Part shown: positions 5,649 through 33,738 of the stretch, in pieces
How the letters are laid out: each line of letters begins with the position of its first letter
How positions within the stretch are numbered: the first letter of the stretch is position 1
Source: an uncultured Streptococcus sp.
Lineage (GTDB): Bacteria; Bacillota; Bacilli; Lactobacillales; Streptococcaceae
Direction: 5' to 3'
Assembly (NCBI GenBank): GCA_963533645.1
Contig: CAUSQY010000001.1
Span: 1 to 57,135 of the forward strand
Length of the DNA stretch: 57,135 nucleotides
The notes under the pieces: model-generated
Database searches by the model: none
The model's input: only the letters and a program-made list of their open reading frames with translations
What the model was told of the DNA's origin: nothing
Program-made: the position numbers and the translations under genes

Positions 5649-6602
5649 ATGTCCCTCACTCAACGTACAACAAAACTGATCTTAGCGACCTGTCTCGCTT
5701 GTTTTCTCGCTTATTTTTTAGATTTATCATCAGCAGTTTCAGCTGGAATTATCGCCCTCTTAAGCCTATCTGACACACGCAGAAGCACGCTGAAATTAGC
5801 ACGCAACCGCCTCTTTTCCATGCTCCTAGCGCTCGCTATCGGCGTTCTAGCCTTTCAGCTGACAGGCTTTCACATCTGGAGCCTGGGCCTTTATCTGGCT
5901 CTCTACGTCCCTCTTGCTTACAAAATGGGTTGGGAAATCGGCATCACACCTAGCAGTGTCTTGGTCGGTCATCTCTTGGTACAGGAGTCTACCTCCCCAG
6001 ATCTCTTGCTCAATGAAGTGCTCCTCTTTCTCATCGGGACAAGCTTTGCTCTGTTGGTCAACCTTTACATGCCCTCTCGTGAGAAAGCCATTCAAAGTTA
6101 CCACCTTCAAGTCGAAGAAAAGTTAAAAGACATCCTGCTTCGCTTTAAATACTATCTGTCAAGAGGAGACGGGCGCAACCAAGCCCAACTCGTTGACCAA
6201 TTAGACAAGCTCCTCGATGAAGCCCTCAAACTGGTCTATTTGGACCACTCGGATCATCTCTTTCACCAGACGGACTACCACATCCACTACTTTGAGATGA
6301 GACAGCGACAAAGTCGCATCCTGCGAAATATGGCCCAGCAGATTAATACCTGTCATCTGGCCGCAAGTGAAAGTTTGATCTTGGCCCAGCTCTTTTCTAA
6401 GATTGCTACCCAGCTAAGTCAGATCAATCCTGCTCATGACCTACTTGATGACATCGAACGCTATCTGCAATTCTTCCGCAATCGGAGTCTCCCGAAAACA
6501 CGTGAGGAGTTTGAAACCCGTGCCACCCTCCTGCAGCTACTACGCGAAGCCGAAACCTTTATCCAAGTCAAGGTCGATTTTTACCAAAAATATGGAAACT
6601 AG
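5649..6602 (+). CDS. aromatic acid exporter family (DUF939/ArAE_1) membrane protein
   Basis: N-terminal TM bundle with SAGIIALLS; C-terminal YFEMR and LPKTREEFETRA.L motifs. Confidence 0.85.
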   Translation: MSLTQRTTKLILATCLACFLAYFLDLSSAVSAGIIALLSLSDTRRSTLKLARNRLFSMLLALAIGVLAFQLTGFHIWSLGLYLALYVPLAYKMGWEIGITPSSVLVGHLLVQESTSPDLLLNEVLLFLIGTSFALLVNLYMPSREKAIQSYHLQVEEKLKDILLRFKYYLSRGDGRNQAQLVDQLDKLLDEALKLVYLDHSDHLFHQTDYHIHYFEMRQRQSRILRNMAQQINTCHLAASESLILAQLFSKIATQLSQINPAHDLLDDIERYLQFFRNRSLPKTREEFETRATLLQLLREAETFIQVKVDFYQKYGN

Positions 6603-6607
6603 AACGC

Positions 6608-6640
6608 AAAGAACCTCAGAGAATTCCTCTGAGATTCTTT
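6608..6640. terminator. bidirectional Rho-independent terminator
   Basis: aaagaacctcagag-aattc-ctctgagattcttt hairpin between convergent genes. Confidence 0.75.
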
Positions 6641-6703: not shown

Positions 6704-7246
6704 CTAGTCGTCCATCACACCACCTGTCAGCCGGTACATGAGGTAGATGTGCTCCAAGGCTTTTACCTTATCCATGTGGTCTACATCTTTAAAGCCTCCT
6801 AATGCTAGAAGTGGAACAAAACCGAAACATTCATCGTAGGCTAGCTGACTATGTTTGGCAACAGCTTTTTTATAGAGTGGGATATCAAAATAATCATCTT
6901 TGAAATCTTCATCATCAACATACTCTATGAAACGATCCATACGCTTAATCATAATATCTAAATCCTGAATATTATATTGGACAATTCCCACGTAAGCATT
7001 CTTTTCCCAAGTAATAATATCTCCAAATGCTGTTACGAACATAGGAAAAGCGACATCTCCTCTGAAATAGCTATCTTGGAGAAGTTCAAGATAGTCATCT
7101 GGATTAATGACTTTTAGATAACCATCAAGAAAAGTTCCTAGACCATCCTCCTGCCAAATTTGAACCAACTCAGCAGGAACTTGATCCTTATATTTTTCAA
7201 TAACTTCTTGGGGCATATCTGCTACTTTGACAAAATCTTTTAACAT
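6704..7246 (-). CDS. GAD-like / DUF1851 (Tdi1-type) immunity protein
   Basis: YKD.VP.EL..IW...G.G....GYLKVINP.DY, F.TAFGDI..W and L..DECFGFVPLLALGG motifs typical of GAD-like + Tdi1 C-terminal domain. Confidence 0.8.
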   Translation of the reverse strand: MLKDFVKVADMPQEVIEKYKDQVPAELVQIWQEDGLGTFLDGYLKVINPDDYLELLQDSYFRGDVAFPMFVTAFGDIITWEKNAYVGIVQYNIQDLDIMIKRMDRFIEYVDDEDFKDDYFDIPLYKKAVAKHSQLAYDECFGFVPLLALGGFKDVDHMDKVKALEHIYLMYRLTGGVMDD

Positions 7247-7249
7247 CTA

Positions 7250-7726
7250 TTAATCCTCTGCTGCAATCTTCATAAAAGCCTGTTTAAAGTCTTCGTACAT
7301 CTCAAAAGCAACTTTCATGACATTTTCAAAGTCATCATAATTAGCAATCACTGGATCCATGATTCTATAGTCCGGAGAGATGAGTCTCCTAGAAAACTCC
7401 ATCAGTGGAGTCCCTAGTATAACTTTGTTTTGAGAGTCCCTAACAACCCATATCAATTCTACTAATCCTTTAAAGATACTAATATGGAATCCAAAAGTAT
7501 AACCATTTTCTTTAATAGGTTCAATATAAAAGAATTTTTCACGCCCATCAAATTTAACTCGATGCCCTAAATCTTCGAAAACGTCAAATATCAACTCGCC
7601 TGTAATAATATTTAAGCGTTTTTCTTTAGGCGTTCTATCTAAGCTAAATTTATCTGAAAGTTCCTTATATCGCTCCACAAAATCTATAGCTTGCAAAGCC
7701 TGTTCAACTCTGCTGTCTAAATTCAT
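7250..7726 (-). CDS. hypothetical soluble protein, putative toxin immunity protein
   Basis: 158-aa ORF with AAGGAG RBS; function inferred from array context and a toxin-like tail immediately upstream. Confidence 0.55.
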   Translation of the reverse strand: MNLDSRVEQALQAIDFVERYKELSDKFSLDRTPKEKRLNIITGELIFDVFEDLGHRVKFDGREKFFYIEPIKENGYTFGFHISIFKGLVELIWVVRDSQNKVILGTPLMEFSRRLISPDYRIMDPVIANYDDFENVMKVAFEMYEDFKQAFMKIAAED

Positions 7727-7747
7727 CTCTCCACTCCTTTGTAAATC

Positions 7748-7837
7748 TTAGTTCAACTCCGTATTCTTTGGCAATCTTCTTATATTTTCAATCACTTCTT
7801 GGGGCATATCAGCCACTTTGACAAAGTTTTCTAACAT
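7748..7837 (-). pseudogene. 5' fragment of a second GAD-like immunity gene fused to unrelated sequence
   Basis: MLENFVKVADMPQEVIE.. after GGAGG RBS; 7779-7837 closely matches 7187-7246, then frameshifts and diverges. Confidence 0.8.
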
Positions 7838-7907
7838 TTTATCCTCCATTTCTCGATAACAGTAATGCTCGAAAAATCACATTTTTCAAAATGTAATCAA
7901 GCTTACT

Positions 7908-8393
7908 CTACTTTTGATTATGTTCCTGCTGGAAGGCTTCCATGGCCTTGAACTGTTCTAGTTCTTTTTCGTTAGCTGGTTGCTTGCCGAGGTATTTGTA
8001 TTCAAATAAATCCATTCGAGCACTTGGACCAAAACCACTTTCCAACCATGGTGCGTAGTCAAAGTCTACTGATAACTTATTATTTCCATCTAAGTGAATA
8101 ATACAAGAATACCAATCTGCTAACTCATTATCCATGAAGACTTTTTTTAATTCCTGAGCTTTTTCAAACAAAACATCATACTCCTTATCAAATAAATCAC
8201 TTGACAGCGAGTATAGCTCTGGAATATCTAAAAAGTATTGATACTCATTCAAAATCTTATAAAAGAAGTAAATCCCTCCACTCAAAGTTCTATCTAATTC
8301 AATATTAATATACAAATCATCCCACTCAACTGGAATCATATCGTTGACTTGATGCACAATTTCGATAATTTTTTCATTAATCTGTTTTTCCAT
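7908..8393 (-). CDS. DUF600/TIGR01741 (EsaG/YezG-like) immunity protein, copy A
   Basis: I...V.DMIPVEWD.LY, W..C.I, DFDY.PW, F.YKYLG..P..E.E motifs; 161 aa from ATG 8393 after GGAGG. Confidence 0.85.
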   Translation of the reverse strand: MEKQINEKIIEIVHQVNDMIPVEWDDLYINIELDRTLSGGIYFFYKILNEYQYFLDIPELYSLSSDLFDKEYDVLFEKAQELKKVFMDNELADWYSCIIHLDGNNKLSVDFDYAPWLESGFGPSARMDLFEYKYLGKQPANEKELEQFKAMEAFQQEHNQK

Positions 8394-8435
8394 ATTTTCC
8401 TCCAATTCATTCTATTATTGTTACGCTACAATCCT

Positions 8436-8444
8436 AGTATACCA
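8436..8444 (-). promoter_or_regulatory. extended -10 (TGGTATACT), internal promoter of the array
   Basis: TGnTATACT about 40 nt upstream of DUF600 copy A; same motif at 11691-11699. Confidence 0.6.
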
Positions 8445-8473
8445 CAAAGAATGCTTCCCACGTTTTCCTAGCT

Positions 8474-8495
8474 AAAAACCACCCTTGGGGTGGTT
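8474..8495 (-). terminator. Rho-independent terminator
   Basis: aaccaccc-loop-gggtggtt hairpin followed by a U-run on the minus strand. Confidence 0.7.
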
Positions 8496-8548
8496 AAGTC
8501 ACAATCAGTTTTCTCCCTAAATTCGTCAGTTATCAAGAAAGAAACTAT

Positions 8549-9028
8549 TTATAAAAGTATATCTTGAGGACCAATCTCAGACAATACGCCGTTGGTAAAT
8601 TTTATCCCTAGTCCGTTATCCTTGTCCCAATCACAATCACATAAAAAACCAACTTCTTCAACATTTTCATCAAAAGTTAAAGGAAACATCATTTGTTTGG
8701 GTTTCAACAGAGAAAAAATTTCTTCTTCATTTCCAATTTTATCTAAAAAGTATTGTTTTTCACTGCTATCGGTATAACCAGAAACAATCTCTGAGATTTC
8801 GTTATGATAGTAAGATACAACAGCAGCATTCGCTTCCTTTATCATTTCCTCTTGATGTTCCTTAAAAAAGACATAGGCTCTTTCTTGATTGACTTCAAAT
8901 TTTCCATCATCATCTGCATCAATAATCATTTCTAAAACATACTGCTCACCAAAAATAGTGACGGTAAGTTCTCGAGTCCAACCATAATTAAATGTTAGTT
9001 TACCAAAAATGTGATGATTCAATTCCAT
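8549..9028 (-). CDS. acidic hypothetical protein, DUF6985/DUF2004-like putative immunity protein
   Basis: FG.L.FNYGW N-terminus; C-terminal GFLCDCDWD.DNGLGIKF..G....IG.QDIL; family recognised from memory. Confidence 0.6.
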   Translation of the reverse strand: MELNHHIFGKLTFNYGWTRELTVTIFGEQYVLEMIIDADDDGKFEVNQERAYVFFKEHQEEMIKEANAAVVSYYHNEISEIVSGYTDSSEKQYFLDKIGNEEEIFSLLKPKQMMFPLTFDENVEEVGFLCDCDWDKDNGLGIKFTNGVLSEIGPQDILL

Positions 9029-9092
9029 TATTTACAACTGCCTCTCTAGAATCCTAATATATTTTATTGCTCTGTTTAGAACTCCAATTCCC

Positions 9093-9974
9093 TCACGTTC
9101 TCTCTTCCTGCAACTGTCCACTTTTAACCAGCTTTTTATAGTATCGTTTGCTGTACCATTCTTGGTCTGATATCTTTAAATAAACCTTATACTCTTCTGG
9201 GTATTTGTGGATATAGTAGGCTTGAAAGATATGGACATTGATCATAAAGGCGATAAAATGAGCTCCAATAACAAACCAAATCGGCAAAAACAAGCCTAAA
9301 ATGTAGAAATACCACTGAAGAGGGACTTGATATAGCAGATGATAGGCCAGCGACACTGGAAAGAGAACTGCCGTGGTTCCAGCGAGAATCCTGACTAGCT
9401 GCCTGAGGATTGACTTTTCCTCTTGATCATTTAGTCTGCGCTTGAGATTCTGGATACTATTGAGAATAATCCAGAAAAAGAGAGCCATACCTATCCCAAG
9501 CTCAAGCCAGAAGCCCAGCCATGTATAAGCATCATAGGCCACTGCACTGGCAAAGTACAGTCCTGATATGAAAGCGCAAATGGACATGGCAAAGTAGAAG
9601 GGAAAGTAGGTCCAAAGTTGGCTAGTCAAACGTTTTTTGGGCCAAAAAACAAGCACCATTCCTAGATAGGATATCACATATACCGTCAGATTAAAGGGCT
9701 TTAGAAAGCTACTCATGTTATGAATCAGCAATCCTGCTTCTAGGGAAATGACCTGAACATCACTATCTACACCTATAAACTCTGGTATCCCGATTAATAC
9801 GCCATAGATCAGAATCCCTAAAAAGCAAAATCCAAGAATAATCACTGTAAAGAGGCGGTTGATGATACCCATATGAATGGGATTGGGCATACCTGCTGTG
9901 AGGGCAAAATCCCCCTGGGTCACAATGCGCTTACTTCTTTCAAAGTCGGCACCGAAAATACGGATGTCTTTCAT
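9093..9974 (-). CDS. multi-pass membrane protein, putative immunity protein
   Basis: About 6 hydrophobic segments; C-terminal YYIHKYPEEYK..LKISDQEWY motif; array context. Confidence 0.55.
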   Translation of the reverse strand: MKDIRIFGADFERSKRIVTQGDFALTAGMPNPIHMGIINRLFTVIILGFCFLGILIYGVLIGIPEFIGVDSDVQVISLEAGLLIHNMSSFLKPFNLTVYVISYLGMVLVFWPKKRLTSQLWTYFPFYFAMSICAFISGLYFASAVAYDAYTWLGFWLELGIGMALFFWIILNSIQNLKRRLNDQEEKSILRQLVRILAGTTAVLFPVSLAYHLLYQVPLQWYFYILGLFLPIWFVIGAHFIAFMINVHIFQAYYIHKYPEEYKVYLKISDQEWYSKRYYKKLVKSGQLQEERT

Positions 9975-10127
9975 TTTTCATCTCCAAACTTCATCTGGCA
10001 GAACGCCGTATATTCTTGAGAATCTTCCATTTGAGGAGGTCACCACATAGCAACTATCGTAGCAGCTACACCTCGCTTCGTTAAAGATACAGCACTCACT
10101 TTCTGGGATTTGACTCTTCCCTAACAT

Positions 10128-10799
10128 CTAGTTACACGTTTCGCTCTCCGGTTCTTTCTTGAACAAGATTTTCCCTTGGCTATAGAGCTTCATAATCTTT
10201 ACAAAACGAACGGGATTGTTTTGGTTGTACAACAAAAAGAGCACGAAAAACATTATACCTGCTCCCCAAAAATCATAGCCGCGTTCGATCGGTTGCCCAA
10301 ATTTTTGAGTACAGTCGTAAAAAACATACAAAAAATAGATAACAAAGGCAAGTATGATGTAACGAGTGATTCGATAGATCGTAGCAGATGCCTCAGCTGG
10401 ATCAAAGTGTTCGTCCCTCACCATCAAATTATGTGACACTGCATAGTAAAAGACCTTCTCCGTTGTTGGCTGAGCCTTGCGCACATTTTTATAAAGTCCT
10501 CGCTCAAGAATTGCGGTAAACAATAGAAACTCAGCCAACCACAATAGTAACACATAGCTCAAACTGGTCCAATTATAGACACCAATATCCAAGGCTGAAA
10601 GGAGGCCATAGAGACCAGGTCCACCTGCCATCAGAAAAATAACCATTTCAGGAATGTAAGCATTGGTCTTATAAGCACCTTCCGTATTGAGTAAAACACT
10701 CTTTGGAGCAGCCAAGGCCTCCCCAGTCTTTTGGTCATAGTAAACCGCCTGACCATTGCATTCTCCGATAAAAACCCGACGACGTCTCAGAAAAAACAT
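10128..10799 (-). CDS. 4-TM membrane protein, paralogue of 10839-11585
   Basis: Shared motifs MF..RRR.F, A.YYD.KT.E.L.APKS.LL.TE, ER.LY.NV and LYNQNN. Confidence 0.65.
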   Translation of the reverse strand: MFFLRRRRVFIGECNGQAVYYDQKTGEALAAPKSVLLNTEGAYKTNAYIPEMVIFLMAGGPGLYGLLSALDIGVYNWTSLSYVLLLWLAEFLLFTAILERGLYKNVRKAQPTTEKVFYYAVSHNLMVRDEHFDPAEASATIYRITRYIILAFVIYFLYVFYDCTQKFGQPIERGYDFWGAGIMFFVLFLLYNQNNPVRFVKIMKLYSQGKILFKKEPESETCN

Positions 10800-10838
10800 A
10801 CTCTACCTCTTTCTATCTCATTCTTTCAAAAAAAGATC

Positions 10839-11585
10839 TTAGTCCTTCTTCACTTCCTTGATAACAAATTCTTCATCCGTCCCCATACTCACTTCCAGAT
10901 AGACATCTGGATTGTCATCCGCTCGGCAGATGAGGCTCAGTTTTCTAGCATAAAAGCGGTCCAGGATATCAAATATTCTGGGTAAATTGTTTTGGTTATA
11001 AAGAACAAATGTCAATCCTAATAAAAGTCCTGTTAGGATAATCTTGATAATCTCTCCTCCGATGGGAGTGCCCAACCTCTCTTGGTAATTCCAAATAAAA
11101 TTATAGGCATAGAAAAATCCAACCAAGGGAACCAGAGAAAGCAATGCTCTTATCCAGCGAGTAGCGTTGCGACTATCTTTTTCACTCATCTCTGCCTCAG
11201 CTTCCTTTGTTTCCTCTGACTTTTCCATAAGCGCCAGACAAATAGTTTGAGTAGTCACCTGAGCTCTGTTGACATTTCGATACAAGGCGCGTTCAACAAG
11301 GATGGTGATGAAAGCAAACTGCCCTAACCAAATGAGAAGAACACTCCAGAAGGTAGACATGGTATAGGTTCCTTGTATAAACAAGCGGAAGAAGGAAATC
11401 AACCCACTACCACTTGATAACAAGAGGACTACCATTAGGGGGATATGGCGATTCATCTTGCTAGACTTTTCTGTATCCAAGAGCTTGCTCTTTGGTGCCT
11501 CCAAAAGTTCATGGGTTTTGCGATCATAATAGATCGCTTTATCATAGTATTGGTTAAAAAATATCCGACGTCTTCCTAAAAACAT
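10839..11585 (-). CDS. 4-TM membrane protein, paralogue of 10128-10799
   Basis: Same motifs as the adjacent gene; purine-rich RBS. Confidence 0.65.
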   Translation of the reverse strand: MFLGRRRIFFNQYYDKAIYYDRKTHELLEAPKSKLLDTEKSSKMNRHIPLMVVLLLSSGSGLISFFRLFIQGTYTMSTFWSVLLIWLGQFAFITILVERALYRNVNRAQVTTQTICLALMEKSEETKEAEAEMSEKDSRNATRWIRALLSLVPLVGFFYAYNFIWNYQERLGTPIGGEIIKIILTGLLLGLTFVLYNQNNLPRIFDILDRFYARKLSLICRADDNPDVYLEVSMGTDEEFVIKEVKKD

Positions 11586-11690
11586 CTCTTTCTCTTTCTA
11601 GTTTCTTTCAGGAAAAGGCGCACATTTCTGACCTTTCCCTTTTGACTTGCATGAAATCAGTCTCTTATCCCATAGATAAACTGTCCTACT

Positions 11691-11699
11691 AGTATACCA
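11691..11699 (-). promoter_or_regulatory. extended -10 (TGGTATACT), internal promoter of the array
   Basis: ctagtatacca repeat shared with 8434-8444, likewise downstream of a hairpin. Confidence 0.55.
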
Positions 11700-11731
11700 T
11701 AAACCCTATGGACTAGCGTTTGGAAAACAAT

Positions 11732-11758
11732 AAAAGACCACCTCGAGGGGGGCCGTTT
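11732..11758 (-). terminator. imperfect Rho-independent terminator
   Basis: GC-rich imperfect hairpin plus U-run just after the DUF600 copy B stop. Confidence 0.5.
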
Positions 11759-11768
11759 ATCCAAGAAA

Positions 11769-12254
11769 CTAGTTCCCATTATGTTCCTTCTGAAAGGATT
11801 CCATAGCTTTGAACTGTTCTAGTTCTTCTTCATTAGCTGGCTGCTTGCCAAGGTATTTGTATTCAAAAAAATCCATTTGTTGGCCTGAGGTAAACCCACT
11901 CTCGAACCAAGGTGCGTAGTCAAATGTAGCAGTCAATTTTGTACCAATAATCTTTATAACACATGTTGTCCATTAAGCCTGCTCTTCATTTTTAAAGATT
12001 TCCCTCAATTCCCAAGCTAATTTGAAGGTGCGTCTTTCATTTTCTCTAAATTCTGAATTAGGCAACTTATACTTCTTGGGAATAAAAAGATTATAAATAT
12101 AGTCACTTTTTCCTTCTTCGTTGAAGAAATAGTAGACTTCTCCACCATCAAAAGTCAGGGTAATATTAATAAAAAGATTTTCCCAAGCTACAGGTATAGT
12201 CTTATGGACACTCTGAGCAATTTCCATCACTTTCTCATTAATCTGTTGTTCCAT
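11769..12254 (-). pseudogene. DUF600 immunity gene copy B with in-frame nonsense codon
   Basis: TAA at 11973-11975; the frame continues WTTCVIKIIGTKLTATFDYAPWFESGFTSGQQMDFFEYKYLGKQPANEEELEQFKAMESFQKEHNGN to TAG at 11769; 486 nt like copies A and C. Confidence 0.88.
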
Positions 12255-12308
12255 ATGTTCCTCCAATTTGGTTTATACATTTCAGGACAAGCATGGGATC
12301 TAGACATC

Positions 12309-12968
12309 CTAATCTTCCTTGAGTTTTTCTTTACAATAATCAACGATATATTCATTAATCCATTTACTCTTATTTTGGAATTTTCCAAGTTTATGCTTTG
12401 CGATCAAGCCTTCAGCCTTTTGGAGTGCCTCTGCATACTGCTTCCGGTGGATCATTAACAGCATTCCCATCAAGTCATGGCAGGCAGGATTTGGCGAATT
12501 TTCGATTGCATAAGCGTAAAAATCTTCAAAAGTTGGGAAGCTATTTATAAGTTTTACAACTTCTTCATGCACTTCTGAGAGCACTTCGAAAACTTTGGTT
12601 TCAACCTTTTCTAAGTCAAGATCCTCCATCGTCCAGTCTTCTTCGGCGATCTTAGTTGGTAACGTAAAGGTATCTACTGTAAAAGCCCCAACCGCTCGAA
12701 GACTCATAGGTGCTTGAGAATTACTCGCCATATCAAAGACCTCCCAAAAAATATCATCAATGATATAGGGTTTGATATAAGGACGAATGATTAGACGAAA
12801 CTTATTATTGGGGAAATTAATATCAATCATATACGAAACTAAATAGTCTCCCACTTTGTTGAAATAGGCCCAATCACGAGACTTTAATTGTAATTTTTTT
12901 GCTGCATTGCGCTGAACTTTTTTCAATTCTTTTTTTAGTTGTTTATCTATTTTTGAAAATTTCACCAT
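12309..12968 (-). CDS. hypothetical soluble protein, putative immunity protein
   Basis: 219-aa ORF with GAGGT RBS; function inferred from context only. Confidence 0.5.
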   Translation of the reverse strand: MVKFSKIDKQLKKELKKVQRNAAKKLQLKSRDWAYFNKVGDYLVSYMIDINFPNNKFRLIIRPYIKPYIIDDIFWEVFDMASNSQAPMSLRAVGAFTVDTFTLPTKIAEEDWTMEDLDLEKVETKVFEVLSEVHEEVVKLINSFPTFEDFYAYAIENSPNPACHDLMGMLLMIHRKQYAEALQKAEGLIAKHKLGKFQNKSKWINEYIVDYCKEKLKED

Positions 12969-13012
12969 TGAATTACCTCACTAATCTGGTCTTTTTCCTC
13001 TTATCCAATAAA

Positions 13013-13498
13013 CTAGTTCCCATTATGTTCCTGCTGGAAGGCTTCCATGGCCTTGAACTGTTCTAGTTCTTTTTCGTTTCTTGGTTCAAATCCTAGAAAT
13101 TGATATCTGAAAAAGTTCATTCGAGCAGTTGGCCCAAAATTACTTTTCAACCATGGAGCATAGTCATATTCTACTGAAAGCTTGTTATTTTCATCCAAAT
13201 GGATAATACAAATATACCAATCTGCCAAGTCATTTTCAATAAACACTCTTTTCAGATCTTCTGATTTATCAAATAATATATCACTTTGGTTAAATACTTC
13301 ATCCTGCGATAACCCAAAATCTCTGGGAAGGTATAAATTATAATGATATTCACCTTCATACTTAAAATAAAAATATGCACTTCCACTATATGTCTTATCC
13401 ATCTCGATTACAATATACAAATCATCCCACTCAACTGGAATCATATCGTTGACTTGATGCACGATTTCGATAATTTTTTCATTAATCTGTTGTTCCAT
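13013..13498 (-). CDS. DUF600/TIGR01741 (EsaG/YezG-like) immunity protein, copy C
   Basis: Same motifs as copy A; 161 aa; near-identical 5' and 3' DNA. Confidence 0.85.
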   Translation of the reverse strand: MEQQINEKIIEIVHQVNDMIPVEWDDLYIVIEMDKTYSGSAYFYFKYEGEYHYNLYLPRDFGLSQDEVFNQSDILFDKSEDLKRVFIENDLADWYICIIHLDENNKLSVEYDYAPWLKSNFGPTARMNFFRYQFLGFEPRNEKELEQFKAMEAFQQEHNGN

Positions 13499-13566: not shown

Positions 13567-13788
13567 TTACTGATAGGTCACTATCATAAAAACAAGGAGC
13601 AAGACAAACAAGGCTAAGCTAATCAAGAGGGTCACCATTTTTACCAAGCGGTTATTCTGCCAGTAGCCTGGTTTTCCGATATTGCTGGTCGCATCCATGG
13701 AAAAGAGTTGGCTTTGGCGAGGTTGGATGAGAACCAGGATAATCAAGGCGACGGCTAGGATTATTCCTATAATCATCAAAATTTCCAT
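13567..13788 (-). CDS. asp5: accessory Sec protein Asp5 (SecG-like)
   Basis: Two TMs with IQPRQSQLFSMDATSNIGKP; last gene of the accessory Sec locus. Confidence 0.85.
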   Translation of the reverse strand: MEILMIIGIILAVALIILVLIQPRQSQLFSMDATSNIGKPGYWQNNRLVKMVTLLISLALFVLLLVFMIVTYQ

Positions 13789-13793
13789 CAATT

Positions 13794-13973
13794 TCACCTC
13801 AAGATTCCTAATAGTGTAAAGATCAGGGTAAGTAGGATGAGCAAGCCGAGTAAAATGGAGAAGGTTTTACTGATCTTTTCTCCTCGGCTAGGCTTTTCTT
13901 TCTTAAGCGCTCCTTGCTTTAACTCTTCCATTCGTCCTTCGACATCCTTGTAAAATAAATCTTTTTTAGTCAT
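13794..13973 (-). CDS. asp4: accessory Sec protein Asp4 (SecE-like)
   Basis: 59-aa ORF absent from the track: MTKKDLFYKDVEGRMEELKQ..GEKISKTFSILLGLLILLTLIFTLLGILR; overlaps the gtfB stop. Confidence 0.85.
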   Translation of the reverse strand: MTKKDLFYKDVEGRMEELKQGALKKEKPSRGEKISKTFSILLGLLILLTLIFTLLGILR

Positions 13974-26727: not shown

Positions 26728-29700
26728 TCAATGACTTTCTTTATCGTCATTCTGACCCTTCTTGGCAAGAAGACCGATACCTGTCACAGCTGCCAATGCT
26801 CCCAACAAAGCAGATGCTACCGAAGTCGACGCTCCTGTATTTGGCAAGACTTGTTTTGGCTTGCTTGAAGCGGATTGACCTTGGCTTGCAATGTTTGCCA
26901 TTGAGAGAGAAGTACTTGTTGAAGTAGATACCAGAGCACTTGCTGACACAGAGCTACTAATAGAATCTGAAATCGAAAGACTAGTGCTAATCGACGTTGA
27001 CTCGCTCGCTGACATGCTTGCTGAAATCGAAGCACTTGTTAGAGCCGATTCACTGGCTAATACGCTAGCTGAGAGTGAGGCGCTCGTTGAAGTAGATTCG
27101 CTCACTGATGTGCTTGCTGAGATGGAGGCACTTTCCAACGCTAACTCGTCTGCTAGCATACTTGCAGAAGTTGAAGTACTTGTTGAAGCTGATTGGCTGG
27201 CGCTGGCTGAGGCTGACTCACTCGAGCTGACTGAGGCAGACTGGCTCGAACTCAATGATGCTGATTGGCTGGAACTTACTGATGCAGACTCACTCGAACT
27301 TACCGATGCAGATTCACTCGAGCTCACTGAAGCAGACTGGCTCGTACTCAATGATGCTGATTGACTGGCGCTCAATGATGCCGATTCGCTTGCGCTTACT
27401 GACGCTGACTGACTCGAACTTACTGAAGTGGACTGACTAGCACTGGCCGAAGCTGATTCACTTGTGCTTACTGAGGCTGATTGGCTAGCACTTACTGAAG
27501 CTGATTGGCTGGCGCTCGCTGAAGCGGATTGACTTGAGCTTACAGACGCTGATTGACTAGCGCTGACTGAAGCGGACTGACTAGCGCTTACGGAAGCGGA
27601 CTGGTTGGAGCTTGCAGATGCAGACTGACTGGCACTCACTGAAGCCGATTGGCTGGAGCCTGCAGATGCGGACTGGCTGGAGCTTGCAGACGCAGATTGA
27701 CTCGAACTTGCTGAAGCCGATTGGCTGGAGCTTGCAGACGCAGATTGACTCGATCTGACTGAGGCCGATTCGCTTGAACTTACTGAAGCTGATTGGCTCG
27801 CGCTGACTGAGGCGGATTCACTTGAACTTACTGAGGCTGACTCACTTGCGCTTACTGATGCGGATTGACTCGAACTTACTGAAGCGGTTTGGCTTAAACT
27901 TACCGATGCTGACTCACTCGAACTTACTGACACCGATTGACTTGCGCTCGCTGAAGTGGATTGACTGGCACTTGCAGATGCAGACTCACTCGAACTTACT
28001 GAGGCTGATTGACTGGCACTCACCGATGCTGACTCACTTGCGCTCACCGATGCTGACTCACTCGAACTTACTGAGGCTGATTGGCTAGCGCTCGCTGAAG
28101 CGGACTGGCTGGCACTTACTGAAGCCGATTCACTTGAGCTTACCGAAGCAGACTCACTCGAGCTTACTGAGGCGGATTGGCTAGCGCTCGCTGAAGCGGA
28201 TTGACTGGCACTTGCCGATGCAGACTCACTCGAACTTACTGAGGCTGATTGACTTGCGCTTACAGACGCAGACTGACTCGAGCTTACTGATGCGGACTGG
28301 CTGGAGCTTACCGATGCAGATTGACTAGAGCTTACTGAAGCCGATTCGCTGGAGCTCAATGATGCAGACTGGCTCGAGCTGACTGAAGCTGACTCACTCG
28401 AACTTACAGAAGCGGATTGGCTAGCGCTGGTTGAGGCTGACTGACTCGAACTTACCGAAGCTGACTGGCTAGCGCTCACTGACTCAGACTGGCTAGCACT
28501 TGCAGATGCTGATTGGCTGGCACTTGCCGAAGCTGACTGACTCGAGCTTACTGAAGCCGATTCGCTGGAGCTTGCAGATGCAGACTGGCTGGAGCTGACT
28601 GAAGCAGATTCACTGGAGCTGACTGAAGCCGATTGACTCGCACTTGTCGATGCTGATTGACTCGAGCTTACTGATGCAGACTGGCTCGCACTCACTGAAG
28701 CTGACTGGCTAGCGCTGGCTGAAGCCGATTCACTTGAGCTTACTGATGCGGATTGGCTCGAACTTACTGAAGCCGATTCACTTGAGCTTACTGAGGCAGA
28801 CTGACTTGCGCTTACTGATGCGGATTGGCTCGAACTTACTGATGCGGACTCACTTGCACTCACTGAGGCTGATTGACTCGAGCTTACTGATGCGGATTGG
28901 CTGGCACTAGCTGAAGCTGATTCGCTGGAGCTCGCTGAGGCAGATTCACTCGAACTTACCGATGCTGATTGACTCGAGCTCAATGAAGCAGATTGGCTGG
29001 AGCTTGCAGATGCAGACTGACTGGCACTCACTGAAGCGGATTGACTAGCACTTGCTGAGGCTGACTCACTTGCACTCAATGATGCGGATTGGCTGGCACT
29101 TACTGAGGCTGATTGACTCGAGCTTACTGATGCGGATTGGCTCGAGCTTACAGACGCTGACTCACTCGCACTTACAGAAGCAGATTGACTAGCACTCACT
29201 GAAGCGGATTGGCTCGAGCTCGCTGAAGCAGATTGGCTAGCGCTCTCTGAGGCAGACTGGCTAGCGCTGGCTGAGGCGGATTCGCTAGAGCTTACTGAAG
29301 CTGATTGACTCGCGCTTACGGATGCGGACTGGCTGGAGCTTGCCGACGCAGATTCGCTCGAACTTGCAGATGCAGACTGACTCGAACTTAATGAGGCAGA
29401 CTGACTAGCGCTCGTTGACGCAGATTGGCTTGAACTTGCTGAAGCAGACTGGCTGGCACTTGCCGAAGCTGACTGACTCGAACTTAATGAGGCAGATTCA
29501 CTTGCGCTGGCTGAGGCGGATTCGCTAGAGCTTACAGATGCCGATTGACTCGAACTTACTGAAGCGGATTGGCTAGCGCTGGCTGAAGCTGACTCACTTG
29601 AACTTGCTGAAGCAGATTGACTTGAGCTTACAGATGCCGATTGACTCGAGCTGGCTGATGCGGATTGACTGGCACTTACAGATGCTGACTCACTCGAACT

Positions 29701-32700
29701 TACTGAGGCTGATCGACTCGCACTCGCTGAAGCGGATTGGCTTGAACTTACGGATGCTGACTGGCTTGAGCTTACTGAGGCTGATTGGCTGGAGCTTACC
29801 GAAGCAGACTGACTAGCGCTGACTGAAGCAGACTGGCTCGAGCTAGCTGAAGCGGATTCGCTGGAGCTGACCGATGCAGATTGACTGGCACTTACTGAGG
29901 CTGACTCACTTGCGCTTACTGAGGCAGATTGGCTTGAGCTCGCTGAAGCTGATTGACTCGAGCTTACTGAGGCTGATTGGCTAGCACTCACTGACGCCGA
30001 TTGACTGGAGCTGGCTGATGCTGACTGGCTAGAGCTTGCCGATACAGATTGGCTTGAGCTTACCGATGCAGATTCACTCGAACTTACTGAGGCTGACTCA
30101 CTCGAACTTACTGAGGCAGACTGGCTAGCGCTCACAGATGCAGATTGGCTGGAGCTTACTGAAGCGGACTGACTGGCGCTTGCTGAAGCTGATTGACTCG
30201 AACTTACAGACGCTGACTCACTCGCACTCAATGAAGCGGATTGGCTGGAGCTTACCGAAGCTGACTGGCTGGCACTTGCCGAAGCAGACTGACTTGAGCT
30301 TACTGAGGCTGACTGACTTGAGCTTACTGATGCAGATTCACTCGCGCTCACTGAAGCGGATTGGCTGGCACTTGCTGATGCAGACTCAGATTGGCTTGAG
30401 CTTACAGACGCTGATTGGCTCGCACTCGCTGACGCTGACTGACTCGAACTTACCGAAGCTGATTGACTGGCTGGAGCTGATGCAGACTCACTTGAGCTCG
30501 CTGACGCTGACTGACTCGAGCTGACCGATGCGGACTGACTAGCACTTACAGATGCCGATTGGCTTGAACTTACGGAAGCTGACTGGCTGGAGCTGACTGA
30601 AGCTGATTGGCTTGAACTTGCTGAAGCCGATTGACTCGAACTTACAGACGCCGATTGGCTGGCACTTGCTGATGCAGACTCACTTGAACTCACCGATGCG
30701 GACTGACTAGCACTTACAGATGCTGACTCACTCGAGCTTACAGATGCCGATTGGCTTGAACTTACAGAAGCTGACTGGCTGGCACTTACAGATGCTGACT
30801 CACTCGAGCTTACAGATGCCGATTGGCTGGCACTTACAGATGCTGACTGGCTGGAGCTGACTGAAGCAGATTGGCTAGCACTTGCTGAAGCCGATTGACT
30901 CGAACTTACAGACGCCGATTGACTGACGCTAGCTGAGGCAGACTCACTGGCACTTGCTGAAGCAGACTGACTCGAGCTGACTGATGCGGACTGGCTGGAG
31001 CTGACTGAAACAGATTGGCTGGAGCTCGCTGACGCTGACTGACTCGAGCTTACAGACGCTGATTGACTGGCACTTGCTGATGCCGATTGACTGGAGCTGG
31101 CTGATGCTGACTGACTCGAGCTGATCGATGCGGACTGACTAGCACTTACAGATGCCGATTGGCTTGAACTTACGGAAGCTGACTGGCTGGAGCTGACTGA
31201 AGCAGATTGACTAGCACTTGCTGAAGCCGATTGACTCGAACTTACAGACGCCGATTGGCTGGCGCTCACCGATGCTGACTGGCTGGCACTGGCCGATGCT
31301 GACTCAGATTGGCTTGAGCTTACAGACGCTGATTGGCTCGCACTCGCTGACGCTGATTGGCTCGAACTTACTGAAGCAGACTGACTTGCGCTCACTGAAG
31401 CTGATCGACTCGCACTCGCTGAAGCGGACTGACTCGAACTTGCAGACGCTGACTGACTCGAGCTCACCGAGGCTGACTCACTCGAGCTCACCGAGGCTGA
31501 CTGGCTATTACTTACTGAAATTGACGCTTGATTTGGCGTAATTTGTCCATTAAACACATCTGAAACCAAACCATCCACTGTCGTACTAGCAGTCACTGGT
31601 CCACTAGGAAGTCGTCCTCCATTGCGATCATATACTTTCTTCAAGTCAGTTGCAGTAAAGGTTACACTAGTCGAGCTCCCCGTTGCCTGTTTGGTAAATG
31701 TTTCACCTGCAATTGTTAAAGTAACTGTCCCACCTGGAGCAACCCCATCCACCGTAATCGCTTGATTTGAGAGCCCACCTTTTTCGTTAAGATATTGATT
31801 CTCTATCCTTGGCGTCTGAGGACGCACAGTAAAGCTCACGTCAATTTCATCCGTACTTCCATCTGGATAAGTTACCACGGCTGTTAACTGATGACGACCA
31901 GCTGGTAAATCTGTATTGGTTCCAGATTTCCAAGTATAGGTTGTTCTAGTTCCCTTAGTAATTCCTGAGGTAGGAAACTCCGGAGTCCCTTGGGCATTCG
32001 TGATGTACTGACTAGCTTCACCAACAGAGATTGTTCCCGAATTTGTCGTAAGAGTAAAGTTTCGATTCACCTCAGCATTGATGGCTGGTTCGTACTTTTC
32101 AGACTGAGCATGGACTTCAAATTGAATTGCGGCAGGGTTGGCTGTTAAATCTTTTACAAGACCTACGTCAGTAGTATTTCCGCTAAAATTACCTTCCTGA
32201 TCATAGGTGAAAACATAACGGGTCCACAAACTATTTACTGCTTGATTTTTTCCAACAGAACCCGTGATTGAAACGGTGAAAGGATTGGTTGTTGTCGCAT
32301 TTCCATCCTTCGCTAGCCTATCTGTCGGAACAATCATTCTGATACTTTGACCATTACTCGTAGTGAATGAGACAACAGTTGAAGTAGCCGGATAGGCCGC
32401 GGGAACAGCAGTAGGGACAAATTTTGCATGTTCAATTCGACCACTGTTATCAGTAAACTCAATGGTCGCAGAAAAATTTTCTTCTCGATAAATTTTAAAT
32501 TTTTGTCCTTCTAGAACTGCGCCACCTGTAACGGTTATTTTCTGAAGTTCTGGCTTCTCAGTATCCCTAGCAGCTCTGAAGCTAGCGGTATTTGAAGCTT
32601 TGGTCAAAGCTTGTCCGTTTCTGCTGTCACGAAGTCCAGACTTGGCACGTAACACAGCATTTGCAATGCTATTTCGAGCTTCTGTAGCCTTATTCAAAAT

Positions 32701-33684
32701 AGAAGTAAAATCAGAAAGCTCCCCTTTCAAGGCATCTGCTATCTCATTCTTCGCTAGACTAGCCTTCGTGATCGCCTCATCCGAGTTTGGAAGCCCCTGA
32801 GCTTGAGCTAGAAACTGCCCAATCTCAGCAGACAAAGCCTCTAATTTCTTCCGTTTTTCTTCACTTTGCTTTTCTGTCAAGGCTAGGGAAGTCATTGTGA
32901 GACTCGATTCAGCCGTCACACCTTCATTCTTTACACGACCAGACTGACTTTGAGGCAAGGATTCTGTAGAAAAATCAACTGCTTTTAATTCTTTCGAAGG
33001 TTGTGATTCTTTCACTGTCTCCCGAGCTGACTCACTTGCTTGGTACTGACTTTGAACACCAACTGAAGCTCTCTCTGACAGATTACTATTCTCTTGATTT
33101 TGTGTTCCAAGGGATTCACTTGAACTAGCAGTTACACTTTGACTGTTTGCCAAAGATTGACTAGTAGAAGCAGATTGGCTCATCGACTGACTCATACTAG
33201 ATGAGCTTGAGGCACTGATGGACTGACTCGTAGAGGCAGATTGACTGGCGCTCTGCGAATTGAATTCTGACAATGACTGGCTTTGACTGGTAGACAAAGA
33301 CAGACTCGCAGTATCTTGATGATCCTGTGTCGTCCCTAGCACTACTGAATCTCTCGTCGCCAGGGTATCTTTTGATTCGACAGTCTTTTCAACAGCGACT
33401 GCATCATTGGCATAAACACGCGTTTGCGTCGCAGCAAAACCACCTAAGATCGTTCCCGTAGCTGCTATCCCTTTCAAGACATCCACGCCGGTCAACTTCT
33501 GACCTTCTTGCTTTTCAACCATTTCTGTCTTTACTTGGCTCGTATCCGCACTTCCACGCATCACCTTAAATAAGCCAAAAAGGGAAGTCGAGGCCCGTAG
33601 CCAATGCTTCCCTGATTTGATTAATTTGAACCGAGTTACACGGTCTGTTTCTCTATATTCACCCTTCTGGCGTCTAAAAAACAT
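26728..33684 (-). CDS. serine-rich repeat glycoprotein adhesin (Fap1/GspB/Hsa-type, Siglec-like binding region, LPNTG anchor)
   Basis: KxxKxGKxW-type signal ([11 protein letters not shown]), short SRR1, Siglec-like region with WTRY, YPDG-containing Unique domain, long SRR2, LPNTG + TM + charged tail; start ATG 33684 (or 33690). Confidence 0.96.
27180..31505 (-). repeat. SRR2 tandem coding repeat, 24-nt unit SAS(V/A)S(S/A)S(Q/E)
   Basis: Roughly 180 degenerate octapeptide units with heavy synonymous variation. Confidence 0.95.
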
Positions 33685-33738
33685 GTTCATCCCCTCAACT
33701 TGAAAAAGATCTATTCACCTATAAAATACTATCTTCTT

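Follow-up and report, generated by a model that had tools for sequence, protein, structure and literature searches.

A probable heterogeneous polyimmunity locus between asp5 and a DUF939 gene in Streptococcus oralis, with candidate type VII toxin partners for its genes

The window analyzed here is the whole of a 57,135-nucleotide stretch of DNA (positions 1 to 57,135 of contig CAUSQY010000001.1, assembly GCA_963533645.1) from an uncultured Streptococcus sp., and the subject is an array of small genes at 6704–13498, between asp5 and a gene of the DUF939 family. An open reading frame (ORF) list together with Pfam and NCBIfam scans places nine intact ORFs in this interval, all on the minus strand, in addition to one broken yezG and a short relic. 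In reading order the array encodes a YezG-like protein, a 219-aa protein, a split YezG-like protein, membrane proteins of 248, 223 and 293 aa, a DUF6985 protein, a further YezG-like protein, a 158-aa protein and a GAD-like/Tdi1 protein. The nearest loci among named genomes are those of S. oralis (95–97% protein identity); the genome is S. oralis-like, and the array is most likely a chromosomal heterogeneous polyimmunity locus of this species. L-numbers denote the loci compared, G-numbers genomes and C-numbers contigs of the genome to which the window belongs. The array, its relics and its two flanking genes are as follows:

13567–13797, co-oriented with the array behind it: asp5, flanking gene (Pfam)
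13013–13498, minus strand: YezG/EsaG-like (DUF600) protein, first array gene (PF04634, E 1e-25; TIGR01741 above cut-off)
12981–12993, minus strand: final codons and stop from the toxin gene paired with the 219-aa gene, 12-nt spacer kept (13 nt, exact)
12309–12968, minus strand: 219-aa soluble protein, unnamed (no Pfam match)
11769–12266, minus strand: YezG-like pseudogene (in-frame TAA at 11973–11975; both halves match PF04634)
10839–11585, minus strand: 248-aa membrane protein, candidate immunity to glycine-zipper LXG toxins (three hydrophobic segments by hydropathy)
10128–10799, minus strand: 223-aa membrane protein, candidate immunity to glycine-zipper LXG toxins (paralogue of the 248-aa protein, 35%)
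9093–9974, minus strand: 293-aa polytopic membrane protein, candidate immunity to a 487-aa LXG toxin family (five hydrophobic segments)
8549–9028, minus strand: DUF6985 protein, candidate immunity to a WHH (HNH/EndoVII) nuclease toxin (PF22481, E 3e-31)
7908–8405, minus strand: YezG/EsaG-like (DUF600) protein (PF04634, E 7.5e-30, and TIGR01741; 68% identical to the first YezG)
7785–7837, minus strand: 5' stub left from a second tdi1 copy (53 nt; 89% identity with the beginning of the intact tdi1)
7733–7792, minus strand: tail of the toxin gene paired with the 158-aa gene (61 aligned nt, 91.8% against the end of the L056 toxin gene)
7250–7726, minus strand: 158-aa soluble protein, unnamed (no Pfam match)
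6704–7246, minus strand: GAD-like and Tdi1_C protein, last array gene (PF08906, E 1e-21; PF08887, E 4e-14)
5649–6602, convergent to the array: DUF939/ArAE gene, flanking gene (Pfam)

The array genes are separated by spacers of 3–183 nt, and the array begins 68 nt behind asp5 with no terminator found in the gap. Its GC content is 37.3%, against 46.9% and 45.4% in the two flanks and 41.3% genome-wide, so that a preliminary description of this DNA, which reported nine co-oriented small genes and fragments that were AT-richer than the neighboring accessory Sec genes, was accurate on both counts. The GC content is low, not extreme, because 9.7% of 474 genome windows of equal size lie at or below 37.5%; the membrane-protein block of the array reaches 41.4%. 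Whole-genome searches for essC, LXG and WXG100 genes gave no match on the window's contig, and apart from the 61-nt toxin tail the window holds no toxin, LXG, WXG100 or ess gene, again as first described.

Every array family has a homologue directly behind a T7SS-type (type VII secretion system) toxin gene in another streptococcus, an arrangement which the preliminary description had anticipated. YezG and Tdi1 are recognized as immunity families by Pfam, and five further families or paralogues by their position behind toxins. For this survey, loci around homologues were collected, ORFs were called mechanically and the direct upstream neighbor was scored, with repeated loci included in the counts. 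The direct neighbor was a toxin-cluster gene for 1/8 homologues of the 158-aa gene, 1/22 of the 219-aa gene and 1/30 of the DUF6985 gene, and a toxin for 7/81 of the 293-aa gene (an LXG-cluster gene within T7SS loci, the best homologue being 75% identical), 2/274 of the 223-aa gene and none of 32 tdi1 and 73 yezG homologues; the two cases for the 248-aa gene (L102, L103) lie outside these counts. Later loci, counted without those already mapped, added tdi1 homologues behind Ntox15 in at least 3 of 29 (59–67% identical) and yezG homologues behind an Endonuclea_NS_2 toxin in at least 1 of 29 (36–38% identical).

The soluble families with named domains point to nuclease toxins. The accessible parts of several accounts report that EsaG/DUF600 proteins neutralize EsaD, while membrane proteins neutralize glycine-zipper toxins (PMC9484751, PMC10765036, PMC12744356), and that an orphan Tdi protects against Ntox15 (PMC10470768). 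The first YezG of the array is 36% identical to a YezG encoded directly behind an EsaD-like nuclease toxin with Endonuclea_NS_2 and PT-TG domains (L314). The Tdi1 protein combines the GAD-like and Tdi1_C domains with homologues behind Ntox15 toxins, to which it is 67%, 62% and 59% identical (L275, L279, L280). The DUF6985 protein is 65% identical to the product of a gene 21 nt behind a PT-TG toxin with a WHH/colicin-DNase domain (L250), a pairing that is less sure because a SUKH gene comes next after the DUF6985 homologue in that locus.

The three membrane proteins lead to LXG toxins. The 248-aa protein is 64% and 63% identical to the products of genes directly behind toxins with LXG and Gly-zipper domains (L102, L103), and the 223-aa protein is 82% (L185) and 78% (L178) identical to those of genes 34 nt behind a 459-aa LXG toxin, which in L185, the one of this pair that was scanned, carries LXG and Gly-zipper domains. 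Comparison with described membrane immunity families gave weak Atlas scores: 0.84 for the 223/248-aa family against DUF443/TsaI, with the family on 23% of that cluster, and 0.83 for the 293-aa protein against DUF5079/ExiC. The PF04276 (TsaI, DUF443) profile had no match in 11 members of the former family, nor PF16882 (ExiC, DUF5079) in seven of the latter. Both families recur elsewhere: S. sanguinis-like genomes (L044–L046, L048, L049, L104–L113) carry, near murA/atpC and following an ABC-type gene, long tandem arrays of 223/248-aa and 293-aa family genes in which no toxin gene is in view, and the genome of the window has a second small-gene cluster (L023, C15:10000–16000), its products probably membrane proteins, that includes a 25% homologue of the 223-aa protein.

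Two soluble proteins have no family name. In L047 the gene that follows a 725-aa toxin gene after 12 nt encodes a protein 83% identical to the 219-aa protein; close homologues of this toxin bear the PF04740 LXG domain. In this toxin family E637, D656, E671 and K673 are kept in 19 sequences, an E, D, ExK set that we take to be a PD-(D/E)xK nuclease motif, and the 219-aa protein is accordingly named only as a candidate immunity protein to an LXG toxin with a PD-(D/E)xK-like motif. The 158-aa protein is 92% identical to the product of a gene 4 nt behind a toxin with LXG and PT-TG domains (L056). The C-terminal domain of that toxin had no Pfam or PDB match; it occurs in 694 clusters and ends RHS, PT-HINT and eCIS proteins, which, on these matches, is a polymorphic-toxin pattern, and the 158-aa protein is a candidate immunity protein to this unnamed domain. 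Searches of PDB sequences found no relatives of the 158-aa and 219-aa proteins or of their two partner toxin domains. Fold models were obtained with pLDDT values of 85.9 (158 aa) and 83.9 (219 aa); Foldseek gave nothing for either at E 0.001, and the best VIA comparisons, Z 6.2 for the 158-aa model (rmsd 3.7, 101 aligned, YbjN-type) and Z 7.6 for the 219-aa model (rmsd 3.4, 102 aligned), lie within background, as does the match of the 158-aa model to the TriTu immunity protein (Z 5.6, rmsd 3.5, 82 aligned). With the three membrane proteins, the 219-aa and 158-aa proteins bring to five the previously unnamed array proteins now paired with candidate toxins.

Relics in front of these two genes bear on their origin. 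The tail at 7733–7792 directly precedes the 158-aa gene, is the best genome-wide match to the end of the L056 toxin gene (E 5e-18) and is the only toxin piece in the window; it is joined to the tdi1 stub (7785–7837) via a common short word. The 13 nt at 12981–12993 lie 12 nt from the start codon of the 219-aa gene, as in L047, a match that alone is not significant genome-wide (E 4.3). Similar toxin-tail relics before the 293-aa and DUF6985 genes seemed possible by eye and failed the control.

The content of the slot between asp5 and DUF939 varies between strains, as had been predicted. The two flanking genes occur together in 31 loci, which after removal of four duplicates leave 27 slots including that of the window: 18 are filled, four collapsed and five empty, in a sample that leans to filled slots because loci were picked by likeness to the array. 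The filled slots show 13 gene orders. In all 18 yezG stands first, and the final gene is tdi1 in 10 and one other gene in 8; none contains an LXG gene, and two contain an HNH-like toxin fragment. Families found only in the slots of relatives are Imm47, SUFU, Imm33-like proteins and homologues of Imm22 and SUKH proteins. Each of the four collapsed slots retains the start of yezG, fused to the final part of the last gene, and among 26 yezG copies likeness is 0.76–0.86 near the start, 0.81–0.85 near the end and 0.51–0.72 between. Elsewhere (L087, L092, L096, L098, L101, L115, L035) array genes lie between prfC and DUF939 with no accessory Sec genes; since they adjoin prfC in such loci, the array outlasts loss of the accessory Sec operon. 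In rAID (recombinase-associated acquired interbacterial defense) systems a tyrosine recombinase lies beside the array. The present genome has four PF00589 matches to tyrosine recombinases, none on the window's contig, and a mobile element is not supported because searches of plasmid and phage collections yielded a single short match in each. The ratio dN/dS, pooled against close homologues (1 to 14 sequences each), is 0.08–0.21 for eight array genes and 0.47 for DUF6985, with asp5 (0.23) and gtfB (0.09) for comparison.

The strain is itself armed, so that the initial picture of an unarmed commensal does not hold: its genome has essC and a WXG100 gene on contig C43, a second WXG100 gene on C13 and LXG matches on C17, C43, C5 and C158. 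Among its own toxin genes are a NADase-containing piece with IFS-DUF6572 behind it, an LXG protein with PoNi behind it, an Endonuclea_NS_2 toxin and an EndoU piece. When 200 genomes of the genus were sampled, essC was present in 11/14 array-carrying close relatives versus 16/22 without an array at this site (one partial match), and the idea that the array marks T7SS-negative, unarmed strains was rejected on these figures. Downstream of LXG toxin genes on C17 (L019, C17:9600–14000) the genome also carries about nine paralogues of 115–129 aa with no Pfam family.

The array most likely yields antidotes to T7SS toxins of other streptococci, an interpretation that, drawn from sequence comparison, can be held with good though not full confidence, and the genes would most likely be borrowed from toxin–antidote pairs of neighboring streptococci. 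The proteins may be expressed by read-through from the accessory Sec operon and from internal promoters, and would bind incoming toxins and so protect the cell. YezG, Tdi1, DUF6985, the 219-aa protein and probably the 158-aa protein would act against cytoplasmic nucleases of T7SSb (LXG or PT-TG) effectors, and the three membrane proteins against membrane-acting LXG toxins. Once taken from toxin loci, the genes could be shuffled without a dedicated recombinase, by recombination at the gene ends that they share (yezG, tdi1) and at short words in common, most likely after natural transformation; S. oralis is competent. Several observations weigh against such a function. Toxin-adjacent homologues are few, most homologues sitting in other immunity arrays, and the yezG match to its toxin-adjacent homologue is just 36–38%. 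DUF6572 follows the 219-aa homologue in L047 and could be the true antidote. The array is dispensable, since one yezG copy is broken and 9/27 slots are empty or collapsed, and the low dN/dS may partly date from the donors. Finally, the partner toxins may be unseen in the strain itself because the assembly reaches 77% completeness and a contig end truncates one LXG gene.

The last point matters for the alternative that the array backs up protection against the strain's own T7SS toxins on other contigs. The own Endonuclea_NS_2 toxin is 40% identical to the partner domain of yezG, and another own domain is 39% identical to the partner domain of the 219-aa gene. However, each of these is followed by its own, different downstream genes. 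Behind the NS_2 toxin stand two genes from a different family that bear no useful likeness to the array yezG, and behind the own NADase-containing gene stands IFS-DUF6572. Searched with the partner domains, the own genome gave no match for those of tdi1, DUF6985 and the three membrane proteins and, for the 158-aa gene, the tail relic alone. An Ntox15 profile search of the genome had no match; as a control, the profile matched three genomes with tdi1 behind the toxin and not two single-contig genomes with tdi1 in the slot, so that complete genomes carry tdi1 there with no Ntox15. A WHH search, made with no working positive control, found no match in the own genome. Displaced self-immunity is thus quite unlikely. 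A role outside immunity is very improbable: the position of the array, 68 nt after asp5 in the same orientation and with no intervening terminator found, would suit accessory Sec factors, but accessory Sec loci exist with an empty slot and array genes follow prfC where Sec genes are absent, and for an anti-phage island PADLOC returned two marginal partial matches for nine proteins.

It has also to be considered that whole LXG modules once occupied the slot and that, their toxins deleted, the immunity genes are little-used leftovers. The toxin-tail relic, the tdi1 stub, the broken yezG and the HNH-like toxin fragments of two filled slots fit such erosion, as does one metagenome contig (L183 and L190) in which array genes run into LXG modules (442 and 487 aa, PF04740) and then into the nanE operon, a possible snapshot of whole-module capture. 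Yet 9/10 genes are intact with low dN/dS, no LXG gene is found among the filled slots, and the partner toxins are of at least two N-terminal types in different species, which makes an eroded locus unlikely. An array of antidotes may nonetheless form by whole-module capture followed by toxin loss, and this would not make it useless.

A bolder form of the preferred reading, antidotes against the toxins of other streptococci, is offered tentatively and is more doubtful than probable. The slot would be a recombinase-free cassette exchanger, with the yezG start and the tdi1 or other end as fixed homology arms, by which a competent streptococcus samples its neighbors' T7SS antidotes and builds up a continually renewed record of the toxins around it; those shared genes would also join distant arrays and rearrange the chromosome, and the 158-aa, 219-aa and membrane proteins would be new immunity families. 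A sign of such array-joining rearrangement is given by two genomes with swapped nanA/nanE and asp5/DUF939 neighbors. Genome G159 has, at one site, nanA, an array of PoNe fragments and PoNi, tdi1 and DUF939, and, at the other, secA2, a yezG array and the nanE operon; G132 shows the nanA–DUF939 side also (loci L030, L031, L032, L316, L317, L319 and L320). In the present genome (C111) the nanA end adjoins nanE, and set against this order those of G159 and G132 look like a reciprocal exchange between two immunity arrays.

Further features of the locus concern its possible expression and its surroundings:

11689–11699, minus strand: possible internal promoter element TGGTATACTAG, extended -10 type, preceding the membrane-protein block
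9978–10127, minus strand: unexplained ORF of 49 codons that occupies the gap between two membrane genes (no Pfam match)
8434–8444, minus strand: second exact copy of the TGGTATACTAG element, possible internal promoter
6615–6633, no strand assigned: hairpin separating the array from the convergent DUF939 gene (terminator-like match)

With up to one mismatch, TGGTATACTAG occurs three times in the window against 0.46 expected, which is a lead only, the pattern having been picked after sight. General scans were at chance, with 25 sigma-70 promoters against 21.7 expected and four terminators against 4.8. The 6615–6633 hairpin is also present in the 36-nt empty slot of L059, and an ORF 80–88% identical to the 49-codon ORF is found in six related loci. 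Farther along the window, at 26728–33690 and upstream of GT8 genes and the accessory Sec operon, lies the gene of a 2320-aa serine-rich repeat adhesin of a known kind, with a KxYKxGKxW signal, Siglec-like and Rib domains and an LPXTG anchor.

What dictates prey susceptibility is named as an open question in a 2026 review (PMC13492133), whose accessible parts do not mention S. oralis. The locus is small, deletable and strain-variable, and suits testing the role of orphan immunity genes in surviving T7SS attack in plaque. Its value is twofold: a way of changing without a recombinase that can be put to the test, and partners for proteins that lack a name. Five such proteins and two toxin domains, likewise unnamed, are now placed in candidate toxin–immunity pairs; if the cassette-exchanger reading were true, the locus would also supply new immunity families against uncharacterized toxins, including one widespread unnamed domain.

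Comparison with described systems rests on the accessible parts of the sources cited. Heterogeneous polyimmunity loci were defined in 2012 (Zhang et al., PMC3482391), where S. oralis is named among oral taxa with an excess of immunity genes and rich in such loci; Additional File 1 of that paper may already list the asp5–DUF939 locus. S. aureus and Listeria have been described as carrying orphan T7SS immunity genes and islands, E. faecalis as carrying orphan toxin-immunity modules, and group B streptococci as carrying LXG modules that include membrane genes. The proposal that one array gathers immunity genes of several unrelated toxin systems therefore stands, on its families and their toxin-adjacent homologues, whereas the proposal of an undescribed system does not. 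Like the loci of PMC3482391, the array consists of tandem unrelated immunity genes in the same orientation, with short spacers, no toxin genes and strain-variable content; unlike some of them, it has no adjoining recombinase (a tyrosine recombinase lies beside the array in "several cases" there) and five of its genes belong to no named family. It resembles the S. aureus esaG/DUF600 islands with orphan exiC and exiD (PMC9484751, PMC12744356) in mixing non-identical DUF600 genes with membrane immunity genes; the conserved blocks that allow recombination among the S. aureus genes have a parallel in the three copies here and in the ends of the 26 yezG copies compared, which are more alike than the middle. 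Unlike an island of that type, it lies between asp5 and DUF939, with essC on a separate contig (C43). The donor loci of the three membrane genes (L102, L103, L114, L185) match the streptococcal LXG layout of Lap genes, LXG toxin, membrane immunity gene and DUF4176 (PMC13492133, PMC9900821), whereas the window holds immunity-position genes only. As in the AID and rAID clusters of Bacteroidales (PMC10470768), an orphan Tdi1-type gene against Ntox15 nucleases stands in a mixed immunity cluster, but in a Gram-positive host, with T7SS and not type VI secretion system (T6SS) donors, no recombinase and two short mobile-element matches only. No description of the asp5–DUF939 site or of the toxin–immunity pairings was found in the literature searched, which left most subscription journals outside its coverage. 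New here are the site, the five toxin–immunity pairings and the signs of assembly by short-homology recombination, in a locus of a kind already known.

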